DNA of 64,000 nt from assembly GCA_026387475.1 (NCBI GenBank), contig JAPLLN010000049.1, forward strand, positions 16,556-80,555, in the 5' to 3' direction. The notes under the pieces are model-generated. The model saw only the letters and a program-made list of their open reading frames with translations. It had not been told where the DNA came from and made no database searches. Both the position numbers and the translations under genes were made by a program. The stretch comes from Candidatus Omnitrophota bacterium (GTDB taxonomy: Bacteria > Omnitrophota > Gorgyraeia > Gygaellales > Profunditerraquicolaceae). Positions 1 to 42,663 of the stretch are shown piece after piece; position 1 is the stretch's first letter; each line of letters begins with the position of its first letter.

Positions 1-3000
1 ATCTTGCACCTTGCTTAGTCTTCGCGCTTCTGGCATCCGAAATATTGACCTCATGATTTGATTTGTCAAAAAGCGTAAGGTCACTGACATTCATTCTTGC
101 TAACCCTGCAACCACGTTGATATTGATAAAGTCAAATCCTGAGATGTCTTGCCTTAAGAACGGCAGGCTAAGAGTAGTCTCGGGTATTGACTTATCAAGC
201 AGATATGCCACCTTTAAGACAGTTTCTCCTTTGCGGGTTTTCTTGGAATCAAATATAACGGATATCCGCTCTTCCCCTTCAGAGCTAACAATCCTCGCGC
301 TGACGATTGTTTTTCTATCGGGGCTAAACTCTATTACCATGATCCAATCTTCATGGCCTTTAATCTTCTGGCTTGATTCATCGATCCAGGCGACGACATC
401 TTTCAGATTCTTCTCGGTTAACGCGGACCCACTTCTTACATAAAAACCGTTATCATTATAGTAATACTTACGCTTTAACGATAAGCCTTCATTTGTTTTC
501 TCCCCAAAATCTATTACGGCCATACCCGACATCTGGATACCGTTTACAACCAGCGGACGTCCAAAGAACTGCACTGTCTCTTCTCCGGGGTTAGTCTCAA
601 TGCCGTATCTCCTTATTACCTTTCCTTTGTCCCTGTTTTCTTCGAACTTCGTTCCTTTTACATACCCCCTGTCTTCAACCACCATTACCGTCATAGGTTT
701 GCCATCAAGTCCGGGATAAATAACTGTTTTCGGAGTCACATAAGAACGGAAACGTATGACTCCTAATTTACCGCCAAGCTCGGGATAATCACGCGTCTCT
801 GAACCAGTCTCATTGTTCTGGGAATCGCGCTGGATCAAAGCGATAGTCTTTTTGTTTAAATCAATACGTCCGGTCTCATCGCCTTCGCCGTAAGTCTCGA
901 TTGTAACCGCCCTCGCCTTCAAAACCTTACCTTTGTAATCATTGCGCGGCACATACAAGACAACATCATGCTCTTTCCCGCCATTAAGAGCAACTCTCGT
1001 CTTAAACACTACTGCCCATCCGATAAGTTCTCCCTCTTCTCCGGTAACAGGATTATACGCGTATAAATTGGAGATCTCTTTCCCGGCGAATTCCGGCTTC
1101 CATTCTCTTGCAGACATACGGGTAGCAAAAGGCATATCATCCCTATCATAGACCATCCCTAAGTTCTCCTGATAAACGGAATCCTTCGGGCTACCCTTCA
1201 TATAAAGCCTCAACAGCCTGTAACCGGATGCGCCCAGGCGCAGCAATCTTATCTCTCCGCTGTCAAATTTCTTGGCAAATTCAGCGTAATTCTTGTAGAC
1301 ATCATTAGGTAATACGAAATAGCCTTTTCCTGCAATACCGTTGGCAAGCTCGGCATCGGTAAGTTTAGGCATCCTAACCATCAGATGCTCAGCGCGTATA
1401 TCATTCATTACTTCATCGCCTAATTTATTGAATTCAATGGTAGCGCCGTTGACATAGCTGGTCAGGAGAGGATTAAACCCGCGCTTCTTTAATGACTTAC
1501 CGAGTTCGGAATTGAATGATGCATTTCTATACCAGAGGACTTCTTCATAAGCATCGCGCACTTCATTGAAATTGGAGTCAATAAACCACGGATACCAAGC
1601 TCCGGACTCATTGGTTTCAGGATGTCTGTTGCCGGGATAAGGATTATGAATGGAGTAAACCGGATTATTTCTATCGGTATGCAGGTCTACTACCATTTCA
1701 CGGGTCAGGCGCGTCCTCAAAGTGCCCCTAAGCGGATCAGGAACATTGCTTAAGGCAACCACAGGCTTATTACCTGTCTTCAGGGTTCCCTTTGTAAAAT
1801 CTACCTGTGCCCTTAGCGCCTCTTCGGGAACGCCGATTAAAGCATAACCCTTCTTATTGAAATTAGATCTCTCGGCGGTCATCCCGCGCTCATAAAGAAC
1901 GGCTAACGCCGGCTCTCCCTTGACGTAAACCGTGGAGATATTCGCCCTAAACCCGTCAGGTAAAACGCGTCCGGCCAAGAGTACCGCCATCTCTCTCTCG
2001 GTGAACATCCTGAACGACCCGCGATTCCCGCCGATAGGCATAGTATAGAACTCGCGGCCTAACTCCAGCATCAACAACTTGCCTTCTAATCCTAATACCA
2101 ATTTCCCGTTCTTACCTTTATAATTGACTAATTCATAGCTGTAAGCTATGCGTCCGTTAGCGTCAATTACCGGCCTACCCTTATAATCTTTGACCTGATT
2201 CCCGCGGACAAAACCGCGGATAAGCGCATCAGTTAAATCCTGCGCATTCATATACTCCAAGCCGGCATTCCTGTCCTGCACCGCGGCCAGGCCGCTGATC
2301 AATCTCGGCGCTATATCATTGATATACTTAAGCCCGGGCTGGACGAACCCGACAAAATCCCCGTCTATTAATACGAGCGCTTCATTCATTTCTTTCGGGC
2401 ATTCGATAACCTGATAAAGCCCCGGACGATTAACCACCAGAGTAATATACTTAGGCCCTCTTCTTAATTCCATGCCATAGGCCTTTATCTTCTGATTGAC
2501 CGCTGCTAACGCAACTTCGTTTTCCAAAATGCTCGTCTTAGCCAAATCTATCGGATTAAGTATTCTGATAGTCTTGCCATCCAGACCGTAGCCTAAACCT
2601 AAGCCAGAATCCAACGCCGCGATATGCTCTTCGTTTAACGGCGCCCAATTGAGCACCCGGCCTATTGTTCCGTCGGCAAATACGCCGCGGGAAGTCTTGA
2701 GCCGTTCGCCTCTCTCTTTAAATTCAGGCACGGAAACAATATCCTGTTTACCGAGCAGCTTGCTGTTAAAGAATTTTGTGATCTCCTGAGTAGTAATATC
2801 GCTAAACTTGGAAGGCCTGACTATAACGTAGCCGTTCTGATCAAACGCCGTCTGCGGAGCAAGTTTAAACATGGTCTTAAGCACAGTGGCGGGAGAAATG
2901 CTGACTGACTGATAGCTTGCATTCGCCTGCGCCATACCCTGATCACCTGACATCATGCCGACATACAATTTATATTCAGCCCATTTCCTTACTCCGACTC

Positions 3001-6000
3001 CGGCTGTCTGCGGAGTAGCTATTCTTTCTATTTTCACATCCGGTATAGCAATCTGCGGAAGACGGATATACCTCTTTAATTCATTTTTCCTCTCCGGGTC
3101 ATTAGCCCAATCAGTCCAGAATTTCTTGTAGGTATCCCAAGTAAGATTCCTCTGGTCAGGGATGGTAAAGAGCGGGTGATCCTGCTCATCCCTGATCTCC
3201 CCGCCAATAGAAACGCTGTTACCGTAAGCCTTTTTGTCTCCAAATTCTACTACCGCCGGGATAAGCACCCGCTTACCCTGTACCATATGCCATTCTGCAA
3301 ACGGCTCCTGCCAAATAAGCACTGTCCCGCGCTTCAGCGGGAATGAACCTTTTTCAAGTTCGATCTCCTGATCGCTCTTAAGCGTAACCGTAGGCAGACG
3401 GTCTAAGTCGCTGCGATTAAAGCTGTAGAAACTCCGGGTAAGACAAATAATCTTCATTACCGGCGCGCGGAGCACTGACGGAAGATTCTTATCTTTCGAG
3501 ATGATTGGCTGTTGGGCGCGCAACGCAGCGTCTAAAGCAGCCGAGGCATAACTAGGGATTATCTTACGATGTCGTAAAGGATCATGATAAAGAGGATAAG
3601 GCGTAGATGTGGATTCCTCGATGGCAAAACCCATATCCATCGGAGATTCGATATAGCTAACCTTGCCGGTATAATCATCTGTGGCTGCGCCGAATTTCTG
3701 GGTCATACCGATGAGATAACGCGGCCCGTTATTCAGAGCTTCGACAGAAAGAATAGAAGGCATAGTCTTATCTTCCTGCATAAGGCCATAGGCGGTAAGG
3801 TATTTTTCCGCGCCCTTTACAAAATAACGCTCCTGGACAGCGAAATCGCGCTTATGAGTCTTATAATTGTAGCGGATGATTATCTTTGCCTCTCCCCAGC
3901 GCAACTGAAAATAGCTGCAGTCAGGCTGCGGGTTATAAATCGCCTCAAAATACATCATACGCAGGTCTTCCGATTCAATTACCACCACAGGATAGAATTT
4001 ATTGAATAATTTCTCCAGCGGCTGGACCGGGTCAGGGACTATCCAGCGCTCACCGTCAATTTCGAATTCCGGAACATCCACGCCGATACCGACCTTTCCG
4101 AAATTAATACCCGGTGAGAAAATATTAAGATGAAACCCGTTTTTATTGCGTTGCGGATAGATAAGCCCGCCTTCGCGAAGCTCTCTGTTCATAAAATGGC
4201 GCTGATATGTCCATTCGCAAAGCTTATCCATAATGTAATAAGCGGCGAGCGGAGGATAGGCAGTGCCACTTGCTATACCTTCAGCGGCAAGCGCAACGCT
4301 AGCAGCGTCTCCCAGCAGTCCGTTTGCGCCGATGCCGCCGGTAAGGCCTCCGCCGAAATTAAAGTTATGTATTATCGAACCGCCTAAATAATGCAGGTTC
4401 AGGCTTATGTCAAAAAGCACAAACTGGGTACGCGGGTCATCGGCTTTAAGTTTGCGCGCCATCTCTATTTTCTTCTGAAGGTCAACGAGAGAATTATTGA
4501 TATAATTGTGCATATGGGTGAGAAGGACTTCTGCTTTTCCCGGATCAAATGCGCGGTGCCTGAATTCATTAAGCGCCCCCACCGGTTTATCCATGCGGGT
4601 TCCCAGAATCATAGGATTGGTCCTGCTTTGAGTAAAACCATACCACATGGTTGAGGCCAGCGACTTCTTGCCCAGAGGAGTAAACCAATCATGGCCGGTC
4701 GGCTTGCCAAAACCAGTAGCATAGGGGAATGTGCCGTCTTCATTAGCGGTACCTTCTACCTCGCGGGTAAGCTGATCCGCGATAGTATTATCGCCAATCT
4801 TACGCAGGGCGGCGACCATAGAAAGAGTAAATTCCGGAGAGACCATGCGGCCGTCTTCCTTCTCTCTCCCTTCAGTCCTCCCGGTAGCTACCTCAACACC
4901 ATCCAAGCCCTTATTCCCGCGCCTGGCTGCCAATCGCCCTTCATCATTTGTATAATCCAACCCGCCTACGTATCTTTCGTTATATTTTATTCTTCTTACC
5001 CTTGCTTCCTGGATCGTATCATGCAGGAGGCGGGAGGCATTAACTCCTCTGACTCCGAGGAGCCTCTCGACATCATTGGCGTTTTCAGTGCTTAAGACTA
5101 GCCACGGGGCAATATCCGAAGCAAAGGTATCATCAAACCTGTTTTTAGTCTCCTCGAAACCGCGCGCCAGATACCAGCGTCTTACCCTATGATCAATAAG
5201 CGTCGTCTGTATCCCAAATATTTCGCTGACGTATTCCTTATAAGCCAAAGAGTTCCTTATGAAATGATTAATCCCGTAACGGCCGTCTTTATCGCCGATA
5301 GTCCACTCCAGGCGCCGGATTAATTCCGGAGAGTTACGTATCCCTAATGCGCTCCCTTTTTCGCGCAATAATTTTATGAGGTTATTCAGAAACGCCCGGC
5401 TTGAGACGCTCTGTTCGGTAGAATAATATGTGCTTAATCTCTCTTTGCCGTATTCATCTATTCTAAAGGTACGCAGGCCGCCGTAGGCAGGACTGCGCGG
5501 GTCAGTATTCTGCAGACCCATCAAATAATCGGCAAGCTGCCAGGCGAAATTAACGAAAGCCGTATCCTGCGCGGTGTAATTATTCTTGTAATACAGATAC
5601 CTTGCTATTGAGTTCCCGAACCAGGCATTCTGCCCGGCATCCTGTTTCTTCTCCCAGACCTCGCCAAACCTAAGGCTGATGCCGTTAGGAAGTCCGAATT
5701 TACCGAGATAATACTTCTGATAAATTTCAATCATAGAAGCTGCATGCTCAAATTCTCCGCCTTCCACACAATCAATGATTGCCAGCGCCGCGTCGTAGGT
5801 AACCAGGGTCTCCATCAAGCGCGGGTCATCCGGGTGGCTAAGCACTAAGTTGGCCCAGATTTCACGCAGCTTCTTATCAGTCTTGTTCTGCTGCAGACTC
5901 TTCTTTAATTCACCTAATTGATCCTTAAGCGCTTCTAATCTCTTATTACGGTCTGTCACAGCTAATCTCTTGTCCAGGCTAAAGGCGTTCATGTACTGCG

Positions 6001-9000
6001 ATAACGCCTTTGTTGCTTTTATCGCTTCCGGAGTAGGCAGGCCGGCAACCTTTGCCTCCAGCTCCATGACCTTGGCCTGCGTAACCTGCCTGTCTTTCCT
6101 TATTTCAGAGATGAGCGCATTATAGCTTTTATCCAAAGCATCTATGCTGGCGACTAATTTTACTTTTAACGGATTAGCGGCCAATCTCTTGACCATCTCC
6201 GCCCTGTCTTTGGCTAATTTTTCAATGGCATTCAGCTGATCCTGTTCGCGGAACTTATACCAATCAAGCTCCTGGCGGGCATCAGCCAGCTTCTTATTTG
6301 CTGCTTCGACAGCTTGGTCTACGGCTTGAGGAGTTACTGATCTGGCTTGAACTGCAGGTTTTGCAGCGGGTAAGCTGACAGGGGCCTGTTGAGCATCCCC
6401 AACAATATTCAATCTCTGCCCGATCACCAGCCTATTCGAATGCTCGTTAAAAATGTGCATATTGTATTTAAATATATCCCTCCACTGGACATTGTATTTT
6501 GCGGCTATTGAATACAAGGTTTCTCTCGGCCGGACTTCGTGGGATATAGGCTTATTGACCAACTTATGAGATACAGGAGGAAGGATCTCTCCCGGAGCGC
6601 CGGGCACGTTCAAGGATGCGTTGGCATCTTCAGCTTTAATTAAGGCCTTAACGGCAACTCTGTTTTCGTCAGCCTTGATTTTTGCGTCGGTTATCTGCAC
6701 AATGTTAGTTGCGGGTTGAGTTACTAATTCTACTGAATTGGTCGGAGTAATGATCGGTGCGGTAAGGACATTAGTGGTTATTGTTGCGGCAGCGACTAAA
6801 TTAGTGGTGGTTTGGCGTAAGCCGGAGAAGAGATTCATGAATCTTTCGATAATTCCCGGAGGACCTGTAGCCATAACCGGCCCGGCTAAACGATGCGCTG
6901 CGTTAGTTTCAACTGATGCCACTTTACCTGTTTGAGTTAAATCCGGAGTAACAATAATATTAGACGGCGGTACTACTTTGGCTGCGGGAATATTATTAGT
7001 ATTAGTAACAGCGGGTACGGGAACAGGTGCAACAGGTATCTCCTCTGCCGCGCCGGCGTTCGGGCCGGTTAACGCCGCCAAAGGTGAAAGCAGATATCCC
7101 ATCGCATCAGTAGCTATCCCTAAAATATCTATTCCGGTGATATTATAAATTAACGCAGCTTCAAGCTGGCCCCAGGAGATAGCGCCCAGGTTATGCTGGG
7201 TATCTTCCAAGGCCATGGCAATTACGTTTATCGGCTCGCCGACCAGGCGGACCGCATCCTGCAACATAGGAACTGAACTCTGATAATTCGCCATTTCATG
7301 GCCGATATTAATAACAGCGGCGATTTCCGCGCCGATCAAAGACATATACCAGAAGGAATTGCCGAATCTGCTTCCCTCTAATAACCACTGGGCAAGGTAC
7401 GGATGCCCCTGATTTGCATAATGACGGGCAATAGCTACACCCACTCCCTGCCCGGCCTTATAAATATTCCAGGACTCTGACGGATGCCTGGCAACAACCG
7501 CAAGATAGGCTAATAATGCCAAAGGTGAAGTTAAAGTAAAGGCCAGCGCCAATACCGCCGGAGCTAAACGATAAGTAATCTTGTTATTGAATCTATTCAA
7601 GAACGGCTTCTTCGCAGCCATAAAGCGCTGCTCCATTAATTTTACTAATCCCGGCCTGCCGCCGGCATTCACAATACCCTGCTCAAGCATATCTCTGACG
7701 AGATCGCCCGATACTTCCTTATTCTTAAACGCATCCAGCAGTCTGCGAGCATCAGTTGTTACGCGGTTTGAATTGTATCTGTTCTTCGCCAGGATATCCT
7801 GCAGGGAATTATAAGTCGATTTAATAGAAATAAGCTTCAGGCCCATGACGATCGACGCCAACCTGATAAATTCGCTTAAGGTATGCGGTAAGCCCCAGTA
7901 TAAACTGTCATTAACATGAAGAGGGAGGCCTAAAACCATTAATACATTATTGGCAAAGACGCTGCTTACGAATATCATCAATCCTCTGCCTGCGGCAAAT
8001 CTGACGATACCGGATACGGTAGGCGCGAATAAGGCCAATTTTGTTGCGGTAGCTTTAATAGCATAGCGCTTTGCGCCGGCTAATACTATTTCCTCGCCAA
8101 ATAAGGCTGCTTCTTTATCGACTTTCTGTTTAATCTCCTGGTCTCCGGCAAGGTAGCTACGGGCAAAATCAGCATAGTCGAGGTATCTCCAGGTATAATC
8201 CCAGAAGAAATTCCAGACTACCTCGACAAGATAACGGATACCTAAGCCCATGGCTGCGGCAGTTAAGACAGCGGAAAGACTAACGCTTGTAGAGAGCGCC
8301 GTAAGAACTGCGAATGTAACAGCGGTCACAAGCGGCAGGGGGGTCTTGAATATCTTATTTACCGCAACATATAATGAAGACTTCGGTGTCTGATATTCTT
8401 TATTGTGAACAGCGCGTAAGGCTAAGGCTTCGGTCTTATCTAATTTAAACGCCGCAAGGCCTAATCCGTAGAATATCCTCGCGTCCTTGCCCGCTCTTAT
8501 ATTCTTAATGTCTCTGGCAAGCAAGGCTATGCCAACCATTACACCTGCAATGAGGAAAATCCCCAGTAATATAGTAGGCAATAGTAATATAGCAGGTACT
8601 GTTGGCGCTAGCTTTACTGCTAGAGGGGCAAGGTATTCAGAAATTGCCACTCTTAACACAGGCATAAAATATTTGAGTGTGTAGATAAAACCAATTAAGA
8701 GAGATGCATGCCAAACCAAAACCGAGCCATTTTTGGTCGTTAATTTAGTTTTTAACGTGGTTCCAACACTAACAGGAGAAGAGCTATTGGTTCTTCTCGA
8801 TGCCACCCTATCTTTAATGACCTTAATTGCTTTCTCCGGATTCACGCAGCCCTTTCCAAGTTTGCCTTCTAAGAAATAGCTATCTTTTAATGGCGTTGCT
8901 GTATCAATTATCACATTTATAGCTTCTGAAGACGCTAACGAATGATCTAGTGATAGCAAATTAGCGGCAAGGGCACTAACTTGGGGAGCAGCGAAAATAA

Positions 9001-12000
9001 ATGCTGAAGCATCGATTCTTACCACGGGAATAAAAGGATAACGCAAATTAGCTGCAATGTTAACTGTAGAAGGAGCGGCAACGCTAACGTAACTACCATA
9101 ATTAGAGAATTTAGCTTTACATTCCCCCCTACTGTCTAATCCGGCTACCGCAATCACCTCTTTATATGCCGCTGGATAAACAGGGATATCCATATTATCA
9201 CCGCCGTTAGCGGCAATAACTACCACACCCTTAGACTGAAGTTGTCTGATTAATTCGTGAGCATTCTCGTCTTCATTATATTCGTAGAAACTGGTATTTA
9301 TTATTACAGGGAGCGTTGGATTGCTGTTTTTAAAATCTAGAACCATTTTTAAGCTCCTCAAAAATCTATCGCGATTAAATTCGAGATGCATTGATTCCAA
9401 TTTTGTACAAATAGCAAAGATCTCCACTATATCTTCAAATCGCTTATTTCCTTTTTCAAGTGACCATCTATATAACTCCCCATAATTCCTCCAATAGTAA
9501 TCCTTACTTCCCTGTTTTATAGAATAATTTCTTAGGAGATTGAGTAATTCATTGCGCACCCCTTCTTTAATACTTGAAAAATCTTTACTGTTTTTAATTC
9601 CAACTATTACTCCACTATCACCAACAGCTGAGATATTTATCGGGATAATCTCGCAGTCATTATTTCTCTCCCGGATTACTTTAGCAACCAATGTACCGTT
9701 AAGATGCCCGCCGAAGTTATAGAAGAATATCGAGTTAAATGGAACCAAAAAGTTATTACCATACTTCGGTTCGGTAATCTTTAATAAGCTATCCCACAAT
9801 TGAGTCTTTAGATCGTATTTTGTATCTCCCATGTATTTTTCCCCAAAACTATGGCTGAGACCAATACCAAATGTTGATAACGTTCCAGAATCAATAATAA
9901 ATACGGTTACCTTTCTCCTATTTTCTTTTCCACACCCGCTAATTAAAGATGTACCTCCAAGGGCAAACATGGTTGTTGCGCCAATAAACTGTCTGCGGCT
10001 CATGCTCAATCCCGCCACCGCCGCGCCGACTTTAGTCTCAACTGAATTCAACGGACTTGAGGTCTTGTCCGCCGAACCGGTGCCCATAGACGCTTCTGCC
10101 TGCCCTAATGGTAACAACCCCTGAACAGAGTCACCACCCCTTACTCCTTCTTCTCCTAATCTGGCTCTCGCTAACAAATTCATAATTAATACCAATATAT
10201 CTTCCCTAGCTTGAACAGAAGGAATAAAGGTGATTTTACGTTTTTCACTGGCAAAGTCAGGGCTCTGTTTAAACCCTCTTGTCAATTCCACACCAAAATG
10301 TTCTGCGACTTCTGCTGGAAATTCTTCAGGAGCGTCATGGGAATCCTTTTTGCCAGCGGTAAGCATATTCATCCACTCTTTAGCCCAGGCGCCACCTAAT
10401 TTCCCAAGGAGTTCAACGTTAGAGATCTCAAAAGGTTTTCCGGTTTCAAGGTCATCTATTACGGTTATCCTTGATAAAAGCAAGGCATTGTGATATGCGC
10501 CGAGCATGGCATCGCCAATTTCATCCTCAGTAATAGGGTCTAAGGGGTGGGTAGAATCTTTTCTGTTCCGGGTTAGCTGAGAACTCGAAACACCCAAATC
10601 CAGAAGCACAACGTTTCCGTCAACATTAACCCCGAAATTATGGAATTTATTGTCTGAAACAATAACCCCTCTGCGGGCCATCTCGATATAAATCTCATAT
10701 GCCTTTCTCAAGATATCCACGCCTATGGCGTATTTACGTTCAAAATTACCATTGCCCAAATAAGCAAAAATGCCCTTACCTTCTGACAGATCCACTAAGT
10801 AATGCAAGATAGTCCGTACCTTTTCCTGATAAATCTTACCATCGCTAAGCAGCACAAATGGTGCGGTCAATCCTCCTAATCTTTCTTGCATAAGGATGTA
10901 ACTTCCGAGCTCAATACTACATTCAGCCGGATTTTTAGGAGTTTTGCGTACAATATTAAGGTTGGGATCTACCTCAACAACAAACTCTGCAGAAGCAGAT
11001 ATCCTGCGCTCAGGCACGAAATTCATCATTGCCTTATACACATGCCCTTCTTCAATCCCGAGGATTTTTGTCAGCAAATCATCAATCTTATATAGCAATG
11101 ACTGGAGGCACAACTTGCAAAAATCATCCCGATTTCCGTCTTGATAGACATTCATCAGATGATGGGCGTCCCGCTGGACGCTTTCGCTAAACTTCTGGCG
11201 TTCACTGTTAAGAACATTCTTTATATAACCATAGAACCTGGCTCCATATTCTGCCTGCACACCGGCGTTAGGACATTGTCCTTGCTCATTTAACATCGCG
11301 CCAAGATATTCTCTTCCCTTTTGCGTAACTGCCAACATATCAATTGCCCAGCGATGATACGGACTTAAACGTGTAATACCTTGAGCGAAACAGGCACCCA
11401 GGGAAATATTATTGTCGTGGGCATAGCTGTTATGCAAATTTGCGAATATCTCCGCCCAGCGTTTCATCTCTATAGCCCTACGATCCGGAGCAAGCATGCG
11501 GTAACTAATGCTTAGGTAGTCTTCATAAAAACTTCTGGTAAAATAAATATGGCTTTTGCCATCAGGACTAAAATACGAAATAGCGGAGACCAAATTTTCA
11601 AGGTCTTTAGCGTCATCGGTAATCGGGAAACCAAATAACGCGCCCACCCCTTCATTAACTACATGTAAAACATAATTCTCACGATTAAGAGGAACTTCCA
11701 GCCCGATAAAGCCGTAATATGCTTTCACGGCTTTCCAGTCAACTACATCAGGGTTAATAATAGTCGTTATATCATCTTCAAATCTGGCTAGCCTGGTCTT
11801 AAGGGCAGCGATTCTAAGGTTGAATTCCGTACCCTGCATATTCGGACCATGCAGACAGAGGACCCATAACTTAGAAGCTACTTCGGTAAGGGCTGCCGGC
11901 GAAGAGGCGTCTTTCTTTTTTTGATCAAGGATTACTTTAACTTTCCCTATTCCCTTGATTATCTCGAATAACAGCACACAGTCTTTGTCGGCCTTAGTAA

Positions 12001-27000: not shown

Positions 27001-30000
27001 CCGTAGCATAAGTAGTATTAACTCCATTAATATCCTGAAGCTGAATCTTTCCTTTTTCATATAAAGAAACTCCTCCTAAAACGCGATGTTCGGCATTATC
27101 CGCCCAGAGAGGAGTAGTATTTACGGAATTGATCTCACCTGTTTTCGGATCAGTACCGAACCCTAATAAGCCTAAACCGTTAGAAAAAGTAGCGAGACTA
27201 CCTGTATGTTCATATTTAAACGCAGGTTCGCTGGTCAAGCGCACTGCCCCCTCATCCACATGAATCGTACCGTTTCCGGAAGTACCCGAAGACGGTAATA
27301 CACCGTTAGCAAACGAGAAAACCTCTCCGGCAATTTTTAAGGCCGGAAGTGGAGTAGAATCCGTTCCCTGATAATAGTTGCCGTAGCCGTAAACCCGGAC
27401 TTCTGCTACCGCATTTCTAAACTCTTGGGTTCCGTATTTTGCAACCGCCTGACTAAAATATTTTCCCTCAATTTCGCTATTTTCGCGATTCCAATTCCAC
27501 TTGGTCTGGCCTTTTTCAGCAACAGGTTTACCACCACTGCCTAACACTACTTCATATAAATTCTTAGTATGATCTATTACTAAACGCTGGCCTATGCTTA
27601 CATCAAATCCCGTATTCTTGTCTTTGCCTAAATTCAGCCAAAGAAGTTGATTATCCGGACCACCCACATATTTTTTCCTGCCATCAGTAACTACCGCCTG
27701 TATATTCTGTCCTGCCAAAGGAGTAATTCCGAAACTATCCTTGGAATTGATTTCAAAAGTGCCGTTTCCAATACGGGTGACCACTCCCTTATCACTACGG
27801 AAGAAAGCTATAAGCTTGCTGTCATTCAGGCCCCAAACAGTATCCTGACGAGTAAGACCATTCTTATCCTTGACAGTAACTGTGCCTCTATTAACTCTTT
27901 CCGCAGATGCCCCTACTGTATGCCAGGAATAGTCTGCCCAAAGCAGAGAGTTATCAAAAGTAGCTTTTCCGTTATTTATCTGAAAGGCTAAAGGCACTTC
28001 GCCGCGCGAGATAATAATATCACTACTGCCAGGCATAACTCTATCTGTTACCCTGACCGCACCGTGAATAGCCAAAGCTAAAGCAGAACCACCCTTACCT
28101 TCAGTTTTTGAATTTCCGGGAGCGAAACTCCAGGTCTCCGGGAAAATAAACGCCAAGGCTGTTGCCGACCTCCCGTCTCTCATTACGGCGTATTCTTTAA
28201 TTTTATTAGATTCATTATATGTAGCAGGAGAATACTCATTCCTTCTTAAATACTGCTGCGCTAAAGCGTCGGTGTAAGTATTCCACCCTCTAAAGCTCTT
28301 CCCGCTTAAACTGCCTTCATATACTTTAACCCAATGGTCGATGTCGACCTTGCGCTGGAATGATTCCTGTAAATTCTTATTTTGATAAGATACCCACGAA
28401 CCTGACATTTTGTCTAGTAACTTATCCGCAACCCAAGTGTTCTTTGCCCCGATAGGCTCGAAACCCAGAGGATTTTTCGCAGTTGCCGATACAATCGTAA
28501 TCCCTTCGCCACCGATCTTGTGATCCCAGAAATTAATTCCCTTCTCATAGCCCGCCCAAGAATAGCGCTCCGGAGTCCCCGGGGTGTAATATTTTGCGCC
28601 GGGTAAATCCTTAGCTAATAGACCGTTCCAACTTACCTGCATTGTGCCGCTAAAAATATTAATTTTGTCGCTATATTTAGATAGACTGCCTAATACGTAA
28701 TTTTCGTAGGAGAGCGGAGTGCCGGTTTCAGCCCCGATTCCTGAAGTATATTTTCCCTGAGGTAGAAGAAGGTTAGTGCTGGCAAAGGTGGTGAAGTTAC
28801 GCGGAGATTCATATCTTCCTTGCGGGTTTAACCCAAACTGTATGCCCAGCATCTGAATCGGTTCACGGTTGATGGCAATAGACCCATTAGAATCTATTGT
28901 TCTAATAACGGTTTCGCCGCTCCAATATTTTGAATTAAAAGCAATGTCTCTGGAGCGTCCGGTAGAATAAAAAGGAACCGGCTTAATATCAACGCCTGCG
29001 ATATTACGAGACAAACTTGTAAAAGGCACCACTCCGCCTTCGTATCCTACGACTGGAGTTTTAAATTGAATTTTTTGATCGGTGAGCGTAGATATCCCAT
29101 CTGCGGTAAATTGTTCGCCATGAATATGTATAAGAGGATTTTTAGCGATAGCTCCCGGGCCTATGGAAGAAATTAACTTATTCTGAATATCTTCTACTTT
29201 AATAAAGGCCCTTTCGGGCATTACCCCTGTTACCTGAAGCCCGTTCTTGACAGCGGAATAGGATTGCCCGGCCTGCGCGATATTTGAAAAATTCATCCCA
29301 AAATAATTAACATAGTCTTTTCCTATGCGATTAGCTGCGGGGCTTACTAGATCATTATTCTGCGCGGACGGGGCACCTCCTATATAACCGATGGAATCTC
29401 CGGGATTCAAAGTAATCGCCAACTGGTCTCTGTTGTTAAAGATAAACCATTTAGGATTATCTATTGTATATCTGCCCGGGGATAAAACCGCTGCCTTAGC
29501 GATATCTTCCGCGCTGCTTTCAGGACCGACTTTCCCCTGTTGCAGGCTATTAAGCATCCTGAAATTGATAGCGTGGTCGGTTTTATTCTGGCTTTCTCCG
29601 TAAGCAAAAATCCTGTCTTCTGCATTTCTGCCTACGGCTAAATTTAACGCCGAGAAAGGTAACGGTTCGCTTGTCTTCCACCACCGGCTGCTCGGCATAT
29701 TGATTGTAGTATCGCCGACGGTTAATTGACCGGGAGTTGCTGACCCATTTCTTAAAGAGAACATTACTTGATTAGGATTAACCATTCTCCACGCTGAATT
29801 ATCGTGATTCCCATACCAGAGCCCTCCCCTTTCATCCTGATATAAACCAGTTCCAAAGAGTACGTTGGGGTTAGCCATATTATGAGTAAAAGTAAGAACA
29901 TGCGGGGTATCTTGAATTACATTTATTCCTCCTATAGTCTGTATCTGCGGTTCCAGTATGCCGCCTTCTTTTAGCATCATCCTCCAGGTAACAGGCGTGC

Positions 30001-31889
30001 CATCGGCGCTGGTTGTGGCCAACATTCTACTATTCTCCCAGGCTTCTATGGCACTGTTTGAATCCTGAAATACGGGAACGTTTATGCCGTTAGCATTTGC
30101 ATAATTAGCTACCTGAATATCAGGATAGAAATCGGAACGGTGGGCATACGCATTATTTGCCGGCAGGATTTCCGCATCTCCGTTACTAATTAGATTACGT
30201 AAAGGCACAACTCTTGATGGGGTTAGATCGTTTACATCACTATATATATTTACATTATCTCCGACTAATTTTACCCTACCACCCGCGGGAGTCATCCCGG
30301 CAACCCTACCTTGATTCCAAAGTTCTTGCAAGTTGCTGTCTGTTAAAGAAGACACTGCTGGTATTTGCGTTTCTTGCTGTGGCTGTATAACCTGCTGTAT
30401 CTCCTGCGGCGCCTGCACAGGCATTGCAATGGACTGCGTCAAATCGTTAGGATATCTATCCGCGATCCTTTCAGTTGCCAGCTCTCTGACAGGAAGGCCG
30501 TTATTGTATTCAATGTAACGGAAATCAGCACCCTGCGGGATGGTTGTCGAACCCGTGAAGTTAGCCGAGAGATCGACCGGCAAAGAAGGTAAAGAAGTAA
30601 CCGGCTGCTGAAGCGAGAGCGACGGCTGAATGGACATCGGCTGCGAAGCTAAATTTGACGAAATGGGTTGAGCTAAAGGCGCATTAAAATTGTTAAGTTG
30701 ATTATTGAAGTTAAAATCAGCCATATTCTGGTTAAGCGGGTTGGACAAAGATGCAGTGGAGTCAAAGTTATTCATCGCGGGATTATTGATGTTATTAATA
30801 AAATCCATCCCGACTGCGCCCGTGAGGCCCAGCGGAGTGTTAACCAAACTAAGTGAGCCATCGAAACTAGGCATTGCCGTAGGTACAACTGTGCCTGCCC
30901 CGATCATCCCAGGAGCATCATAAGTCGGGGCAAATTGCGCTCCAAAATCGGCAACAAATGGTTGGCTTGCCATCTCATCCATGGCTTGGAATGACTGCTG
31001 ATCTGCCTGGTTCCAATCGCTCTGCGAGCCGTTATCTACGGCAAACACTCCTTCGCCTTCCTCATCCGCGCCCATGACCTTCTTAGCTTCTGCCTCGCTT
31101 AATGCTTCCATCCCTGCCCCCAGTTTCTCCACCAGGGCGTTTCCGGAGAACTTCTCCTGGAACTTATCCAAAGGCAGATACTTTTCAGTATGGTTATCGC
31201 TGTAATAAACCTTGCCATCGCTGACGCGGGTGACTAAAACGTAGTGGCCGGGATTAAGGTGGGCAATAAATGGTGTCAGCTCTTGTATATTGGATGTCAG
31301 GATCTTGACCGCATAAAGCTTGTGGTTAAAGAATTCGCCGGCGCGGGATAATGCGTATAATGAGTTCTTGATGACCTTGGGATTACCTTCCGGCTTGACC
31401 ACATCATTTAAAATATCGGTAGTCAGGGCAAAGACCGCGATATCCTGCTCCTGCACCTGCGCGCCCTTATAACCCAGATAATCAAAAAGGGCCCTTGAAC
31501 CGCAGGGCTTGCCCATCAACCAGTTGTAAATCTCTTCTATTCTGGCTTTGGATATATTTAACGGCTTGTCTAATTGTATGGTCAGGGTAGGTGAAAGCTG
31601 TATTGAAGTTATTTTCTTTCCGGATATTTCAGTGAGGATATTTTTGATCGCCAGAGGGACTGCGATATCGTGCTGCCCGCCCGGGATGACAGGAGCGAGA
31701 GAATAATTAAGCCCAGGCTTCTGCCAGAGAACGCGCCAGTCATACTCCATTGCCTGCGCCGGGATCTCCGGTAAAAAAACAGCCACCACGATAAAGGCGA
31801 CTATTCTTATCCAGGTCTTGAAGCTGGATTTGAAAGGAGCCTTCTCTTCGTGCTGGCCGATCTCGCCTTCTGGGTTTGTGGTCTTCACT
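1..31889 (-). CDS. Giant multidomain protein, partial (3' end beyond the window start); more than 10,600 codons visible. N-terminal signal/TM segment, then repeats and peptidase-like, REC-like, subtilisin-like, TM, LysM and coiled-coil modules.
   Basis: ATG at 31889 (MEKVKTTNPEGEIGQHEEKAPFKSSFKTWIRIVAFIVVAVFLPEIPAQA, a hydrophobic signal-like segment), with an in-frame upstream ATG at 31982. Hand translation of the minus strand from 31982 down to about 15,700 and from about 10,200 down to about 600 met no stop; the span between was sampled only at the REC-like (about 12.0–12.3 kb) and M24-like (about 13.6–14.5 kb) modules. The ORF track shows only short (<=203 aa) plus-strand ORFs across 1–31,900 and omits ORFs without an in-window stop (the edge serine recombinase is also omitted), consistent with a single open minus-strand frame running off the edge. 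Confidence 0.8.
6410..6550 (-). other. LysM-like peptidoglycan-binding motif inside the giant ORF, followed by a coiled-coil segment (about 5,900–6,400).
   Basis: VRPRETLYSIAAKYNVQWRDIFKYNMHIFNEHSNRLVIGQRLNIVG (LysM pattern). A heptad-rich segment follows: ...ELDWYKFREQDQLNAIEKLAKDRAEMVKRLAAN.... Confidence 0.4.
8950..10010 (-). other. Subtilisin (S8)-like module inside the giant ORF, preceded by an internal twin-arginine / lipobox-like sequence.
   Basis: In-frame ...LSMSRRQFIGATTMFALGGTSLISGCGKENRRKVTVFIIDSGT... (RRxFIG Tat-like motif, hydrophobic stretch, L-I-S-G-C lipobox-like, then the D-S/T-G Asp motif of S8). Downstream is ...NGGDNMDIPVYPAAYKEVIAVAGLDSRGECKAKFSNYGSYVSVAAPS...RIDASAFIFAAPQVSALAANLLS (an S8 Ser-region-like segment). 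The upstream frame stays open through this signal-like sequence. Confidence 0.45.
11990..12340 (-). other. CheY-like receiver (REC)-like domain inside the giant ORF.
   Basis: VLILVVDDNPHDAYFAIRGVRKLLEASGITATFEEASSLGTAVTRIKDQNKPKFDLVISDFHLLGPTALTLLKEAPEIKDIMVIRSV. This gives the DD pair, an Asp in the DLVISD context, and an (I/V)R(S/T) strand, which is the REC fold pattern. Confidence 0.5.
13640..14450 (-). other. M24 (pita-bread fold; Xaa-Pro / methionine aminopeptidase-like) peptidase domain inside the giant ORF.
   Basis: Translated motifs VVIDFGAQKGEYNNDMTRAFWVG (D...D metal ligands), GHFTGLAGHEG (GHGxGxxxHE) and GMIFTIEPLV (FxxEP). Their order and spacing match the M24 family. Confidence 0.6.
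19400..19900 (-). other. Caspase/CHAT/gingipain-like (clan CD) His–Cys dyad domain inside the giant ORF.
   Basis: Translated segment AQVIVIGGHGTSESVKLSSSSELNLSNVGRLREISDRLAQGGVIVLESCSTGEGKG. It shows hydrophobic strand–GHG, then 41 residues, then hydrophobic strand–ESCSTG, the characteristic clan CD His/Cys spacing. The His codon is at about 19743–19745 and the Cys codon at about 19622–19624. Confidence 0.5.
26000..28300 (-). repeat. Intragenic tandem repeats of about 290 aa inside the giant ORF (at least 2 clear copies, probably a degenerate third).
   Basis: DNA-level near-repeats about 875 nt apart. Example: 26430–26526 (ttagcgaacgagaaaacatctcctgcgatttttaatgtcggaag...) versus 27305–27410 (ttagcaaacgagaaaacctctccggcaatttttaaggccggaag...). 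A second pair is 26250–26320 versus 27120–27200. Translated units share ...LYEV(V/K)LG(S/A)(G/N)GKPV...NSEIEG(K/R)Y(F/Y)S...R(V/I)YGYG(N/E)Y(Y/K)QG...LP(A/T)LKIAG(E/D)VFSFANG...(L/M)LGFG(T/V)DPKTGEINS(V/I)NT(T/V)PLW. Confidence 0.55.
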
Positions 31890-32209
31890 TTTTCCATATT
31901 AGTATTATTACCTATATGCAAAGAGGGGAAAAACAGTTTTCCCCTTACCCCAGCTTCTTCATTATGAGCTTCGTGATTTTCGGTCGTCATATTGGAAAAG
32001 TTTTTATTTAGTATTTGTAAAACTATTTATTAAGCCATTAAATAAAAAAACCGAGCTGTAGAATCCACAACTTACGTCGGTATTCGGCAGCCCGGCCATC
32101 CTAAAACTACACCAAAATTTTTTGAGGACCCGTGGCTTTGCGCCCCTGCTTTTCAGCAGGTTTGCCCTTATCGTTTTCCGTGGCTTTACTCTGTATCAAT
32201 TACATTTAA

Positions 32210-32237
32210 AGTATATAATATAATCCGTCGCTGTCAA
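32210..32237 (-). promoter_or_regulatory. Sigma70-like promoter for the giant gene (TTGACA-N16-TATACT on the minus strand).
   Basis: The reverse complement of 32205–32240 reads cTTGACAgcgacggattatattaTATACTttaaa. The -35 is at 32232–32237 and the -10 at 32210–32215, which implies a 5' leader of about 220–315 nt. Confidence 0.45.
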
Positions 32238-32390: not shown

Positions 32391-32436
32391 AAGGCTAAAA
32401 ATGGCGCCCTTGATTTCATCGCGTTAGGCGCCATTA
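32391..32436 (-). terminator. Rho-independent terminator after the 888-aa gene.
   Basis: A 9-bp GC-rich stem AATGGCGCC/GGCGCCATT (32400–32408 and 32427–32435), followed on the minus strand by TTTTTAG. Confidence 0.6.
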
Positions 32437-32439: not shown

Positions 32440-32472
32440 CAGATTGGACATTAATTTTCCAGATTGGACATT
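32440..32472 (-). promoter_or_regulatory. Tandem pair of the 13-nt motif CAGATTGGACATT (minus-strand sense AATGTCCAATCTG), between the stop of the 888-aa gene and its terminator.
   Basis: Copies at 32440–32452 and 32460–32472. The 45-bp context TTAATTCAGATTGGACATTAATTTTCCAGATTGGACATTAATCTGG is nearly identical to the 35351–35391 context. Confidence 0.5.
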
Positions 32473-38265: not shown

Positions 38266-38456
38266 TACCTTTCGTTGGTAATCTGCGTTACCCCGGGCTC
38301 ATACTGCTCGCCCTGGCCGAATGTATCCGCGGTCTCGCGCGCGCGCTCGTGGAATGCCCGCTGCAAAAATATGCGCATCCCGATAAAAGCGCCCAGCACG
38401 ATCAAAACCAATGCCACATATTCAATCAACCCCTGCGCCCTAATGTTTGGCTTCAT
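38265..38456 (-). CDS. flp: Flp/Fap-family pilin-like protein (class III signal peptide).
   Basis: 63 aa: MKPNIRAQGLIEYVALVLIVLGAFIG.... It has the G-x(2-4)-EY motif followed by a hydrophobic helix, and shares the motif with the other small ORFs in this locus. Confidence 0.55.
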   Translation of the reverse strand: MKPNIRAQGLIEYVALVLIVLGAFIGMRIFLQRAFHERARETADTFGQGEQYEPGVTQITNER

Positions 38457-39237
38457 AATCCACCGCTATGTTAGTGACGCTCTTGCCTAAATCCGGCAAT
38501 TCTTTCTCAAAAGTAACCTGGGATAACCCGATTTTACAGGTATCATTACGGTTATTAGAAAATACCAGCTCTTTCACTGCCGCGCGGGTATTCTTTACGC
38601 CTGCCATCGGCACTTGCGCAAGGGGGCTTTCGCTCTCCAACTTCCACCCCCGGAGGACCATATTATTCTTATAAAACAAAACAACTTCAGCTAATCCGTC
38701 CTTGCAGTAATAATTCACCGATTGCCCGCCGGGCCCTTCTATGAGATTTATCAATACCGCTGCCGGATAAACCGGAGCAATATCTTTTTTAGGCTTAGCC
38801 AGGAGGCGGGTTTCGCCTGCCGCCCCGGGCTCTTCTTTTATTTTACCGCGGGAGACCGTAAACCTGGTCTTGCCGTCTTGGAAATATTGCGCCGGAGGAA
38901 ATACGATGATAATACGCTCCTCTCCGTTATCAAACGCCAGCATATTATCTATAACAGCGGCATTAGCCGGCGGAACATTCTTACCTAAATTAATTTCTCT
39001 CCAATTAGAAGCAACGAGTTGTTTGCGGTAGAAATTTTTTACCGCATCCCCGCTTTCATTAGTTACGTAATAGGTAAAATGCTGCTTTGAGCCGGCGATC
39101 AACCTGTCCTCTTCTATTGTCTTCCGGGCCCCGTATGGCACCGGGGTAGAGGCCTGCCCCCACCAATCAGCATAAAGCCAGCTAACCTGAAAAAGGGTTA
39201 TAATAATCAATGCTAATAAAGTACGCTTACCTGACAT
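38440..39237 (-). CDS. Secreted hypothetical protein (265 aa) within the Tad locus.
   Basis: ORF track. N-terminal signal-like segment MSGKRTLLALIIITLFQVSWLYA. It is co-oriented and tightly packed between the tadG-like and flp genes. Confidence 0.55.
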   Translation of the reverse strand: MSGKRTLLALIIITLFQVSWLYADWWGQASTPVPYGARKTIEEDRLIAGSKQHFTYYVTNESGDAVKNFYRKQLVASNWREINLGKNVPPANAAVIDNMLAFDNGEERIIIVFPPAQYFQDGKTRFTVSRGKIKEEPGAAGETRLLAKPKKDIAPVYPAAVLINLIEGPGGQSVNYYCKDGLAEVVLFYKNNMVLRGWKLESESPLAQVPMAGVKNTRAAVKELVFSNNRNDTCKIGLSQVTFEKELPDLGKSVTNIAVDYEAKH

Positions 39238-39246
39238 TTTATCTCC

Positions 39247-40650
39247 TTACTTACCCGTCGTGCTAAGCTTATCCGTATCGATAATATCCGAGTCAAATTC
39301 CATTCTCGGCGGGTATATTTGACCGCCCTGCTGGCCAATATTTCCCTGAAAACTTACCAAGCTGTAACTATAAATATCCGGATACGCGGTCTGCCAGAGG
39401 CCCAAGTCCGTTCCCTCGTGATGTTGATGGGTGTGAACCGTAACAAAGCGTTCATTATCCCAGGGCTTTACGTCGTTAATCCAACAGATAATATCCAGCG
39501 CGTCTCCTTCGCTATCTTTTGTCGAACGCTCCGGCATTAATCCGGCTTCAGCCGCAACAAGCAGGGCGATCATGGCGGGGATTAAAGCGATCGCTGCCAG
39601 CACCGCTGCATTACCTACCCCTGCCGACGCCTGGCCTGCTGCAGATAAGTTGCACGCAGCTACATAACCATCTGGAAATGGTTTGCCACATTGAATCACG
39701 GCAAGAGCGAAAAACTTAGCAGCAGTCCTATATGCCTCACCAGCTGCAATCATATCTGCCTTAGCGCTCAAACCCAGGCCTAAAATAGAGGCTAAATCCG
39801 CTAACTCCACGGCTAACGGAAATACGCAAACCTGTAAATCAAAGGTATCCGGTTTTTCAATCGTCGAGTTTATCTTCACAAAATGGCCCCTGTCTTGTCC
39901 GTCTTTCCACGGATAAATATATTCATCCGGAGGGGTGTCTTCTTTAGCCAGATTAGAGATAGAAGTCAAAAACTCACTGAAGCTCCCCTGATAATCACGT
40001 TTTTTATCCGGATCAGTTACATCTTCGGGCGGGTCTCCGCTCCTTAATTTGTTCCCTATCCCGCTGTTGGCAAAAGCAAAGGTATAAGAATAACCCTTGG
40101 CATAATTGTGTTGTTTTTTCGCAGTCTCGCGTATCTTCAAATAGGTGAAATACTGGCCTGTCCAGAAACCCAGAACAGCGAGATTTAAAGCTATGATGAT
40201 CTTAGTAAAGCTTGCTAACTCTGCAGCGGATGCGACTGCTGCTAAGTTAGCCACACCAGATTTTGCTAAACCAATAGGAGCAGCGCAACAGGCTGCTCCT
40301 GTCGCTATTATGCCGGCTGCCGTGGCTTGATTTGCATAGGTTTGCGCAAATGCTAATTTTATCAGTGCCGTAGCAAAAGATACGCTAAAAGAAGCGTAAA
40401 ACATCCAGTATTTTGCTTCTAACGTGCTATTACTCTGGGCAATGCCGTTAAATAAGCTCGCCATAGTCGAGCCTCCGGCGAGCGCTCCGGAGTCTGCGGC
40501 GTTAGCCCCGTAAGTCTTGGTCATCGCCACCTTACTTAAATTCACCGAGACCATCGCCATAATAATGAGCACAACCAACACGATGATAAATATCGGGACC
40601 ATCTGGCCCTGTTCATACCTGAATTTATTTTTGGAAAAATTTGTAAACAT
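39247..40650 (-). CDS. tadG: TadG-like pilus assembly / minor pilin-like protein (467 aa).
   Basis: N-terminal segment EQGQMVPIFIIVLVVLIIMAMVSVNLSKVA resembles the TadE/G-like N-terminal helix. Its position after the tadE-like genes matches canonical Tad locus order. Confidence 0.45.
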   Translation of the reverse strand: MFTNFSKNKFRYEQGQMVPIFIIVLVVLIIMAMVSVNLSKVAMTKTYGANAADSGALAGGSTMASLFNGIAQSNSTLEAKYWMFYASFSVSFATALIKLAFAQTYANQATAAGIIATGAACCAAPIGLAKSGVANLAAVASAAELASFTKIIIALNLAVLGFWTGQYFTYLKIRETAKKQHNYAKGYSYTFAFANSGIGNKLRSGDPPEDVTDPDKKRDYQGSFSEFLTSISNLAKEDTPPDEYIYPWKDGQDRGHFVKINSTIEKPDTFDLQVCVFPLAVELADLASILGLGLSAKADMIAAGEAYRTAAKFFALAVIQCGKPFPDGYVAACNLSAAGQASAGVGNAAVLAAIALIPAMIALLVAAEAGLMPERSTKDSEGDALDIICWINDVKPWDNERFVTVHTHQHHEGTDLGLWQTAYPDIYSYSLVSFQGNIGQQGGQIYPPRMEFDSDIIDTDKLSTTGK

Positions 40651-40662
40651 CGCCGCCCTTCC

Positions 40663-40911
40663 TTACTTCACTATAACCTTATTCTCAGTAAGCGCCTCCG
40701 GGACATAATTCCAACTCACGGGCTGAATGTAGTCGTCTTTACCTGTCCCGGCAGTAACGCGCGTATTATTGTAAGCGACCTGGCGTTTGATCATCTGATT
40801 ATTAAACCAGAACCAGATATTCACCATCCCGCCGAGGACAATGACCAGGATGATAAACGCCATCACTGTCTCAATGGTCCCCTGTCCTTTATTATTGCGC
40901 GCGCTCCTCAT
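40663..40911 (-). CDS. TadE/TadF-like pseudopilin (82 aa).
   Basis: MRSARNNKGQGTIETVMAFIILVIVLGGMV... has the G-x4-E class III signal-like motif plus a TM helix. Confidence 0.5.
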   Translation of the reverse strand: MRSARNNKGQGTIETVMAFIILVIVLGGMVNIWFWFNNQMIKRQVAYNNTRVTAGTGKDDYIQPVSWNYVPEALTENKVIVK

Positions 40912-40912
40912 T

Positions 40913-41572: not shown

Positions 41573-41581
41573 TTTAGCCCC

Positions 41582-41992: not shown

Positions 41993-41994
41993 TT

Positions 41995-42324: not shown

Positions 42325-42325
42325 T

Positions 42326-42662: not shown

Positions 42663-42663
42663 C

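Follow-up and report, generated by a model that had tools for sequence, protein, structure and literature searches.

The minus strand of a 64,000-nt stretch of contig JAPLLN010000049.1, from a Candidatus Omnitrophota bacterium (hereafter the window, in which position 1 is the first letter), carries the 5' part of a giant gene. The gene is headed by a predicted C39-type cysteine peptidase domain, is preceded by a leader containing an aptamer of the cyclic di-GMP (c-di-GMP)-I class and an intrinsic terminator, and lies downstream of a Tad/Flp-type pilus or secretion locus (Table 1). Omnitrophota are tiny, host-dependent bacteria, and their giant genes are among the largest genes known.

Exact six-frame translation reveals a minus-strand frame that runs from 32026 to base 1 – 32,026 nt and 10,675 codons, with 0 stops – and leaves the window at its left edge, so that this length is a minimum. 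No other open stretch of the window exceeds 2,928 nt. From base composition a stop codon is expected every 17 codons, and the probability of 10,675 stop-free codons is ~1e-280; the two shifted frames of the same strand contain 45–120 stops per 3 kb. Comparison of in-frame codon usage to that of eleven neighbouring genes gives r = 0.61–0.87 in all eleven 3-kb tiles, and values of about zero for the shifted frames. Because usage is gene-like in every tile, we conclude that the open reading frame (ORF) is one coding frame without a frameshift. Repeats at the DNA level are limited to two weak pairs (72–75% identity) at 26.2–27.6 kb, and hence there is no sign of repeat collapse. A sequence-only reading of this stretch had proposed a single ORF of more than 31.8 kb and had named assembly collapse as a point to be checked; the ORF holds under exact translation and is coding in all tiles, and the repeat comparison found nothing beyond the two weak pairs. 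Reassignment of a stop codon was considered and rejected: all three stops are absent from the frame and occur at normal density in the shifted frames.

In-frame start candidates are ATG 31990, ATG 31897 and GTG 31888. The second is favored by the N-termini of ~70 homologues, which take the form M-x(15-25)-FKSSFKxWIRVVAF, and from it the visible product has a minimum of 10,632 residues and a mass of 1.16 MDa or more. The start positions of the sequence-only reading (31982 and 31889) lie about 8 nt from the ATG codons. Minus-strand positions 1–31897 are the 5' part of a genuine Omnitrophota giant gene.

A search with residues 44–900 of the giant ORF returned 43 protein matches, all with PF03412 and with 51–62% identity over the first ~280 residues only; those that carry names are almost all labelled Omnitrophica or Omnitrophota 'C39 domain-containing protein, partial'. 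A profile of the N-terminal module found 109 places in GTDB genomes. The best 80 of these (L001–L080), on which all locus counts below are based, lie in Omnitrophota metagenome-assembled genomes, bar a few bins labelled otherwise, which agrees with the lineage first suggested for the gene. In 76 of the 80 the C39 ORF is still open where the fetched DNA ends, which for loci with a full 10-kb flank means after ~3,600 codons. Homologues of TadB/TadC are found upstream on the same strand in 42–47 of the ~51 loci with enough flank, and therefore linkage to the Tad genes is conserved rather than incidental. The closest relative, L001, shares 76% identity in the N-terminal module.

Giant genes in Omnitrophota have been described by West-Roberts et al. 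(2023, bioRxiv 10.1101/2023.11.21.568195) and by Nielsen & Lui (2026, bioRxiv 10.64898/2026.06.07.730766). The former report the same upstream gene set together with an N-terminal C39 domain beside a signal peptide; the latter report secretion or pilus flanks at 13 of the 14 largest cases and an architecture group with PF03412 that has 24 members. Length thresholds are at least 10,000 residues (Nielsen & Lui) and more than 30,000 in the core set (West-Roberts et al.). The visible residues pass the first of these, and the full length extends beyond the window. The sequence-only reading placed the product among the largest bacterial proteins; within its phylum the size does not stand out: 5,761 Omnitrophota proteins of at least 10,000 residues have been reported, with a maximum of 147,155, and 10,000–11,000 residues is unremarkable there.

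The published giant genes and the gene described here have much in common: an Omnitrophota genome, an N-terminal signal and C39 domain, multiple hydrophobic helices (by a crude method in our case), peptidase content, a sequence-unique body, insertion sequence (IS) elements nearby, and a T2SS/Tad-like locus upstream that includes a secretin, GspE/F-like proteins, RcpC, a Rotamase_2 peptidyl-prolyl isomerase (PPIase) and small pilins with class-III signals. They differ in their other domain sets and in that the window gene is visible for its first 10,632 residues only. Pfam searches of this part found no SecA_DEAD/SecA domain, whose published position is towards or after the 3' end, and no glycosyltransferase, methyltransferase, glycosyl hydrolase, NUDIX, dockerin or TSP3 domain. 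The Archaeovorin domain set was likewise not detected in the visible part, and we do not file the gene as an Archaeovorin. Judged from the sequence, it belongs to the published C39-headed Omnitrophota group, which is broader than Archaeovorin, and adds to that class because it has the same N-terminal module and the same upstream gene set.

Table 1. Features of the window discussed in the text. Amino acid (aa) positions of the giant protein are numbered from 32026.
Feature	Position	Strand	Basis or remark
Giant ORF	1–31897	-	Stop-free frame and coding signal in each 3-kb tile; frame open up to 32026
LysM peptidoglycan-binding domain, aa 8496–8541	6404–6541	-	Pfam PF01476, 32.9 bits (gathering 20.9)
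Second hydrophobic cluster of ~4 helices, aa 7819–8172	7511–8572	-	Kyte-Doolittle scan
Subtilase (S8)-like module	8807–9919	-	Pfam PF00082, 35.8 bits, aa 7575–7716
Internal twin-arginine/lipobox-like signal SRRQFIGATTMFALGGTSLISGC, aa 7343–7365	9932–10000	-	Read from translation
Hydrophobic cluster of ~4 helices, aa 6204–6488	12563–13417	-	Kyte-Doolittle scan, crude
M24 (Xaa-Pro peptidase-like) domain, aa ~5990–6127	13646–14059	-	Pfam PF00557, 62.4 bits
Internal repeat region, aa 1215–2040	25907–28384	-	Self-BLAST; ~3 units of ~285 aa, 27–49% identity
C39-type cysteine peptidase domain (predicted)	31058–31660	-	Pfam PF03412, 23.9 bits, aa 223–299
N-terminal signal-anchor helix, aa 67–85	31772–31828	-	Hydropathy peak
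Conserved short upstream ORF or RNA element	31898–31990	-	Here in frame and fused to giant ORF (MTTENHEAHNEEAGVRGKLFFPSLHIGNNTN)
Intrinsic terminator (expression platform)	32044–32096	-	Hairpin, -20 to -22 kcal/mol
CAGCUCGG	32058–32051	-	Lies in terminator 3' arm
c-di-GMP-I-class aptamer	32082–32175	-	Rfam RF03167, 76.6 bits (gathering 59), E = 2e-16
Sigma-70-like promoter TTGACA-N16-TATACT	32210–32237	-	11/12 consensus matches
Terminator-like hairpin closing upstream TPR gene, AUGGCGCC...GGCGCCAU + UUUU	32397–32434	-	Read from sequence
Tad/Flp-type pilus/secretion locus	38440–56773	-	Pfam scans; upstream of giant gene
Flp pilin, 57 aa, MFKRKGQSTLEYVIIL...	45185–45358	-	AGGAGG site ahead of ORF
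Divergent second c-di-GMP-I-type aptamer (candidate)	45434–45538	-	R1 19.9 bits and comparison with related loci
IS200-like insertion	45898–48284	+	Between DUF192 gene and pilin promoter; interrupts Tad locus

The upstream TPR gene is closed by a terminator-like hairpin, and the giant gene is thus a separate transcription unit. The promoter that the sequence-only reading had assigned to it stands and reads as a strong one of sigma-70 type, and TTGACA with a TATA-type -10 element occurs at the same place in related loci, also where the aptamer has been lost. The long leader that was suggested earlier is likewise present, and can now be refined to a c-di-GMP-class riboswitch with its terminator, followed by a short upstream ORF. 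A covariance model (R1) built from the window and 18 related leaders scores the window aptamer at 90.2 bits and finds an aptamer ahead of the C39 ORF in 71 of the 77 loci with enough upstream sequence (47.8–106 bits), three of the 80 having too little to be counted. In 66 of the 77 loci the distance from aptamer to gene start is at most 600 nt, in five it is 1.2–3.5 kb, and in the remaining six the aptamer is deleted, while the promoter and the rest of the leader are kept. In helices P2 and P3 98.2% of the cells are paired, a value reached by none of 500 shuffles. Six pairs show two-sided changes, five of the six P2 pairs among them, with a further compensatory swap in the aptamer (GGC..CGC for GGU..CAC).

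The terminator is built on the aptamer itself. Its 5' arm, CCGGGCUGCCG (32095–32085), is the 3' strand of aptamer helices P3/P1, and its 3' arm, CUACAGCUCGG (32061–32051), is followed by a run of seven U (32050–32044). When the whole leader is folded without ligand, the minimum-energy structure has the terminator hairpin in place of P3, and the same design is found in 71 of 72 related leaders. Terminator cells are 91.9% paired across leaders, compared to 16–43% when the partner strand is slid; the register of the arms was anchored on each sequence's own fold, which favors pairing somewhat. Compensatory swaps are evident at two terminator positions (U-A in 19 and C-G in 14 leaders; G-C in 33 and A-U in 4). 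Structure and covariation together show, at the level of sequence, that aptamer and terminator are mutually exclusive.

Aptamer and terminator draw on one shared strand, and a bound ligand should therefore prevent termination. Without ligand the terminator would form and transcription would stop ~160 nt after the start; with c-di-GMP bound the aptamer would keep the shared strand and RNA polymerase would read into the >32-kb gene, making this an ON switch. We infer both the ON direction and the identity of the ligand. The riboswitch probably decides whether the giant gene is transcribed at all.

Other parts of the leader are conserved too. In 65 of 67 loci there is a short upstream ORF of ~25–33 codons, with G-V-R-G at its core, which sits 55–125 nt past the aptamer in the related loci. 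Its frame differs from that of the giant ORF in 35 loci, and in the window and about a dozen others it is in frame and open; the open frame reaches ATG 31990 because the short ORF is in frame here. Its G-V-R-G core, GGGGUAAGGGG (31951–31941), is invariant at the nucleotide level and has a U-rich stretch after it; a hairpin lies within the same region at 31945–31924, and AUAUAGGUAA (31917–31908) stands a few bases ahead of the main ATG. Directly after the riboswitch terminator nearly all related leaders carry the box CUUA(R)UAA-N4-6-GUUUUACAAA (32014–32036, minus strand). This box, written CUUAAUAA...GUUUUACAAA, is kept even where the aptamer is deleted.

The giant protein begins with a signal anchor. 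The anchor segment WIRIVAFIVVAVFLPE is nearly invariant among homologues, as is WIRVVAFIVVAVFLPE, the signal anchor of their N-terminal module. The C39 domain that follows has the catalytic pair expected of such peptidases, Cys in KPCGS (aa 175) and His in GHYVLV (aa 261), both invariant in 32 sequences. An AlphaFold2 model built on the homologue alignment has a core pLDDT of 85–95, and its top Foldseek matches are the peptidase domains of PCAT/PCAT1, LahT and ComA, which act on double-glycine leader peptides (target TM-scores 0.62–0.72). On this model the N-terminal domain has a papain-like C39 fold with catalytic Cys and His and is a predicted peptidase. The PCAT1, LahT and ComA peptidase domains (MEROPS C39) share the predicted fold and the conserved Cys and His with the window domain; the PCAT-type domains differ in being fused to an ABC transporter, whereas the window domain follows a signal anchor, is predicted to face outward and heads a giant protein. 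Pfam scans found no ABC transporter domain in the visible protein or its neighbours.

The M24 (pita-bread) domain aligns to the C-terminal two thirds only of the Pfam model, and its metal-ligand motifs (IDFGAQKGEYNNDMTR, HFTGLAGHEG and FTIEP, which would supply the five ligands D, D, H, E and E) are all present; it also matches prolidases in the PDB (E = 3e-10). A hydropathy scan gave nine peaks in three groups, which are the N-terminal anchor and the two clusters of Table 1. Most of the remainder is close to orphan. The first 4,957 residues had no match in the PDB sequence search and the last 975 none among 5.8 billion proteins; residues 1200–2100 have just two related proteins among 1.84 billion representatives. 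When the whole protein was compared by tblastn with the 80 related loci, only seven scattered module matches came up beyond residue 450, and NCBIfam added only weak peptidase and LysM matches. The profile searches advised by the sequence-only reading recognized C39, M24, S8-like and LysM domains and left the rest of the body almost orphan. Self-comparison revealed one internal repeat region; structure prediction for its unit, with the three internal copies as alignment, had a mean pLDDT of 32 and was unusable.

Giant adhesins of the LapA/SiiE type are type I secreted, have tens to hundreds of near-identical Ig-like repeats and a C-terminal secretion signal, and in some bacteria those of the LapA type are controlled by c-di-GMP. 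The window protein resembles them in being very large and, by prediction, surface-associated; unlike them it is almost non-repetitive, N-terminally anchored, holds enzymes and is linked to a Tad-like system. A classical repeat adhesin is rejected on the ground that the protein is almost non-repetitive. The co-localisation with Tad genes, from which the sequence-only reading drew its suggestion of a pilus-associated adhesin or host-interaction protein, is conserved. Judged by its C39, M24, subtilase-like and LysM domains and its helices, the product would be a multi-enzyme protein or polyprotein that is anchored in the membrane and directed at the cell wall, not a classical repeat adhesin. If the helices in each cluster are even in number, all large segments would come to lie on the outer side, which fits the LysM domain; we predict an N-terminal anchor and a location outside the cytoplasm for most of the protein's mass.

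Whether such a product would stay in one piece is a separate matter. It may be a precursor that is inserted at several membrane points and cut into many proteins by its own C39 domain, by other peptidases and by signal peptidases, a possibility raised for the class by West-Roberts et al. (10.1101/2023.11.21.568195). Two internal clusters of membrane helices and several peptidase domains are consistent with this, as is the mosaic nature of the body, a few modules of which recur at other positions in other giant proteins. Of particular relevance is SRRQFIGATTMFALGGTSLISGC, a twin-arginine (Tat)/lipobox-like signal more than 7,000 residues into the protein and directly ahead of the subtilase-like module, which suggests either a once-separate lipoprotein gene that was later fused or internal processing. 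A Tat signal inside a polypeptide, however, cannot work in the usual way. Moreover, the subtilase-like module, which also matches PDB subtilisins and the NCBIfam mycosin model (68 bits, under its cut-off), keeps the Asp (IIDSG) and His (GGHLNGT) motifs but apparently lacks the Ser: in pairwise alignment SGTSMAAPH is matched by SAFIFAAPQ, which leaves the triad incomplete. Because Ile stands at the position of the catalytic Ser, the module is probably inactive. We regard the polyprotein as possible but doubtful; it concerns the fate of the protein after translation and is compatible with the conclusions on the gene and its riboswitch.

Upstream of the giant gene the Tad/Flp set lies in one locus: Flp pilin, TadB/TadC, a TadA-type ATPase, RcpA secretin, RcpC and TadE/G-like pseudopilins. 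The genes encode a TPR protein, a Rotamase_2/SurA-like PPIase, RcpC and a secretin with a TonB_C tail; a fused ParA-like/T2SSE ATPase, a DUF192 protein and three Flp/pilin-like proteins; and finally two T2SSF proteins, TadE/G-like proteins and two large unannotated or TPR proteins. Two unusual fusions lie at 48724–52569 (minus strand), one joining the secretin to a C-terminal TonB_C domain, the other a T2SSE/TadA ATPase to an N-terminal ParA/CpaE/TadZ-like domain. Among the assigned ORFs of 100 aa or more, no A24-type match that would mark a dedicated prepilin peptidase (TadV) was found. The co-oriented run of ~57 kb described by the sequence-only reading does contain the Tad/Flp locus upstream of the giant gene, and is broken by the plus-strand IS200-like insertion at 45.9–48.3 kb. 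This insertion encodes an IS200-like Y1 transposase (47784–48284) and a 593-aa ORF with PEPEPAPEP-type repeats and no Pfam match; the same transposase is found beside the same ATPase and DUF192 genes on a contig of SRR20698639 (L082).

The region ahead of the Flp pilin gene (45395–45603, minus strand) contains a promoter-like site (TTGACA-N17-TATATT), a divergent candidate aptamer and a terminator-like hairpin with a U-run. Rfam gave no match at 45.1–45.9 kb even at E <= 1. Clearer and better-scoring aptamers precede Flp pilin genes in L043, L044 and L072, and an equivalent is also present in L001. Strong aptamers with terminators were further noted ahead of other large ORFs, at 78–201 in L014 and 1481–1585 in L028; these ORFs encode 2,089 and 2,499 aa with N-termini of the form ...AWAREGN..., and lie just upstream of the C39 giant gene. 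The distribution suggests that several units of the locus may answer to the same signal, in agreement with the PilZ genes that adjoin other giant genes and the GGDEF domains near or inside them (West-Roberts et al., 10.1101/2023.11.21.568195).

Two further features of the neighbourhood deserve mention. Between the TPR gene and the promoter of the giant gene (32441–32472) stand two tandem copies of the motif TTAATGTCCAATCTG, which recurs as the palindrome AATGTCCAATCT...AGATTGGACATT beside the IS-like insertion (45815–45850); a similar sequence, AAATGTCCAATCTGA, lies upstream of the promoter in L012. The motif may be a mobile-element end or a repetitive extragenic palindromic (REP)-like repeat. 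At 57000–64000 the GC-content falls from ~0.48 to 0.34–0.40 and the genes turn to the plus strand, mostly without Pfam match (the exceptions are a MerR-type HTH and a DUF7365 coiled coil). The locus may here border on a foreign or mobile segment.

The identity of the ligand turns on the binding pocket. The best-scoring Rfam model for the window aptamer is the GGC variant, RF03167, a class apart from canonical c-di-GMP-I, and the aptamer ahead of the pilin gene carries CGCAUGGCC where that of the giant gene has CGCAAAGCC. On these grounds the riboswitch might sense something other than c-di-GMP, or might act as an OFF switch. Against this, the position at which RF03167 has its conserved G (CGCGAAGC) is A in the window (CGCAAAGCC) and in all 72 aptamers before giant genes, and the flanking pocket G and C are kept in all 72. 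The pocket segments GG(C/U)AAAC, C(G/A)C-A-AAGCC and U(G/A)C-CGAA occur in the window and, with few exceptions, across the 72. Among the 20 related loci tested, all with Rfam matches, 16 are best matched by RF03167 and four by canonical RF01051; 16 canonical-clan matches among these loci were suppressed only as lower-scoring overlaps, and a lower-scoring match of the window aptamer to another model of clan CL00126 was suppressed in the same way. Finally, the terminator makes use of the aptamer's own 3' strand, as is standard for ON riboswitches. We take the pocket positions to be those of G20, A47 and C92 in Vc2 numbering. The c-di-GMP-I-GGC variant was reportedly defined by Weinberg et al. 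in 2017; a true GGC variant is rejected here, given that the defining G is A, even though the RF03167 score exceeds the gathering threshold. The pocket thus reads as canonical and, therefore, c-di-GMP is taken as the likely ligand; we consider a different ligand or an OFF switch unlikely.

A number of other observations, besides the rank of RF03167, weigh against our reading of the locus. The window ends inside the gene, and C-terminal features and downstream genes, among them the SecA-like domain and the PilZ genes reported for the class, would fall outside it. About 90% of the giant protein is without a detectable homologue, the membrane helices were called with a simple hydropathy scan, and the functional argument rests on four small domains, one of them apparently catalytically dead. 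In L001 the giant ORF switches frame after ~1,100 codons (13143–13195), and the aptamer has lost its 5' half between two AAAGCCACGG direct repeats (9735–9818), a hint that loci of this kind can decay, although an assembly error may also account for the damage; both direct repeats are also present in the window. As for records of the window itself, neither the GTDB genomes nor the JGI metagenomes contain an exact copy of bases 1–50 (searched as a 50-mer), an exact look-up of an 888-aa neighbour protein was without match, and the window ATPase is otherwise on record only on two short Logan contigs (SRR25046532 and SRR20698639). That the long ORF is an assembly artefact (a chimeric join or collapsed repeat) or an unexpressed, decaying pseudogene, as a source contig without match in the public collections searched and the state of L001 might hint, is nevertheless scarcely credible: 10,675 stop-free codons cannot arise or persist by chance, codon usage is uniformly gene-like, long repeats are absent, the promoter, aptamer, terminator and start region show no damage and agree with the family consensus, and the same kind of ORF occurs in dozens of independent assemblies.

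With these points weighed, we consider it likely that the locus holds a genuine C39-headed giant gene, transcribed as its own unit under a c-di-GMP ON riboswitch, whose membrane-anchored product has a role towards host or prey. Together with a co-regulated Flp pilus, the giant protein would most likely serve in attachment to a host or prey cell and in attack on its envelope, which is the published hypothesis for the class. A wider proposal, to which we incline with rather less assurance, is that the Omnitrophota attachment and attack locus is a c-di-GMP regulon in which each unit has its own ON switch, with a second layer in the leader formed by the GGGGUAAGGGG upstream ORF and the CUUAAUAA...GUUUUACAAA box. 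The regulon would take in the Flp pilin genes, further large secreted proteins and the giant gene with its C39 head.

The window element shares with the c-di-GMP-I class (GEMM-I; RF01051, clan CL00126) a P2 with GNRA loop, a P3 and the canonical pocket nucleotides. It differs from known members in its host phylum, in a regulated gene of more than 32 kb, in a slightly better score with the GGC-variant model, in the additional conserved elements of its leader and in that several units of one locus each have a copy. One parallel is Bc2, an ON riboswitch before the gene for a collagen-adhesion protein in Bacillus thuringiensis (PMC4933901). Both lie in the leader of a gene for a surface, adhesion or pilus protein and have a transcription-terminator platform with the same ON logic (predicted in the present case), and high c-di-GMP is predicted to turn on attachment here as with Bc2. 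Full-text searches (Omnitrophota, Velamenicoccus archaeovorus), which covered literature outside subscription, recovered no paper tying riboswitches to giant genes, and the word 'riboswitch' is absent from the preprints of both West-Roberts et al. and Nielsen & Lui. As far as could be searched, then, the link between riboswitch and giant gene is unreported, and it is readily testable.

Another Omnitrophota giant gene with a near-orphan body is, by itself, no surprise in this phylum. What is useful is the finding that a well-understood sensor, the c-di-GMP-I-class riboswitch, wired as an anti-terminator, stands before the giant gene here and in 71 of the 77 related loci with enough upstream sequence. 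In other bacteria c-di-GMP is the second messenger that governs surface attachment; the riboswitch would tie giant genes to this messenger, makes the timing of their expression testable, and agrees with reports of PilZ genes and GGDEF domains close to, or within, other giant genes. The arrangement would be economical as well: with a stop after ~160 nt the cell is spared a 32-kb mRNA and a >1-MDa protein at times when neither is needed. If the regulon proves true, c-di-GMP would be the first defined signal for the expression of a bacterial giant gene, and would provide an experimental handle on when and why such genes are made.

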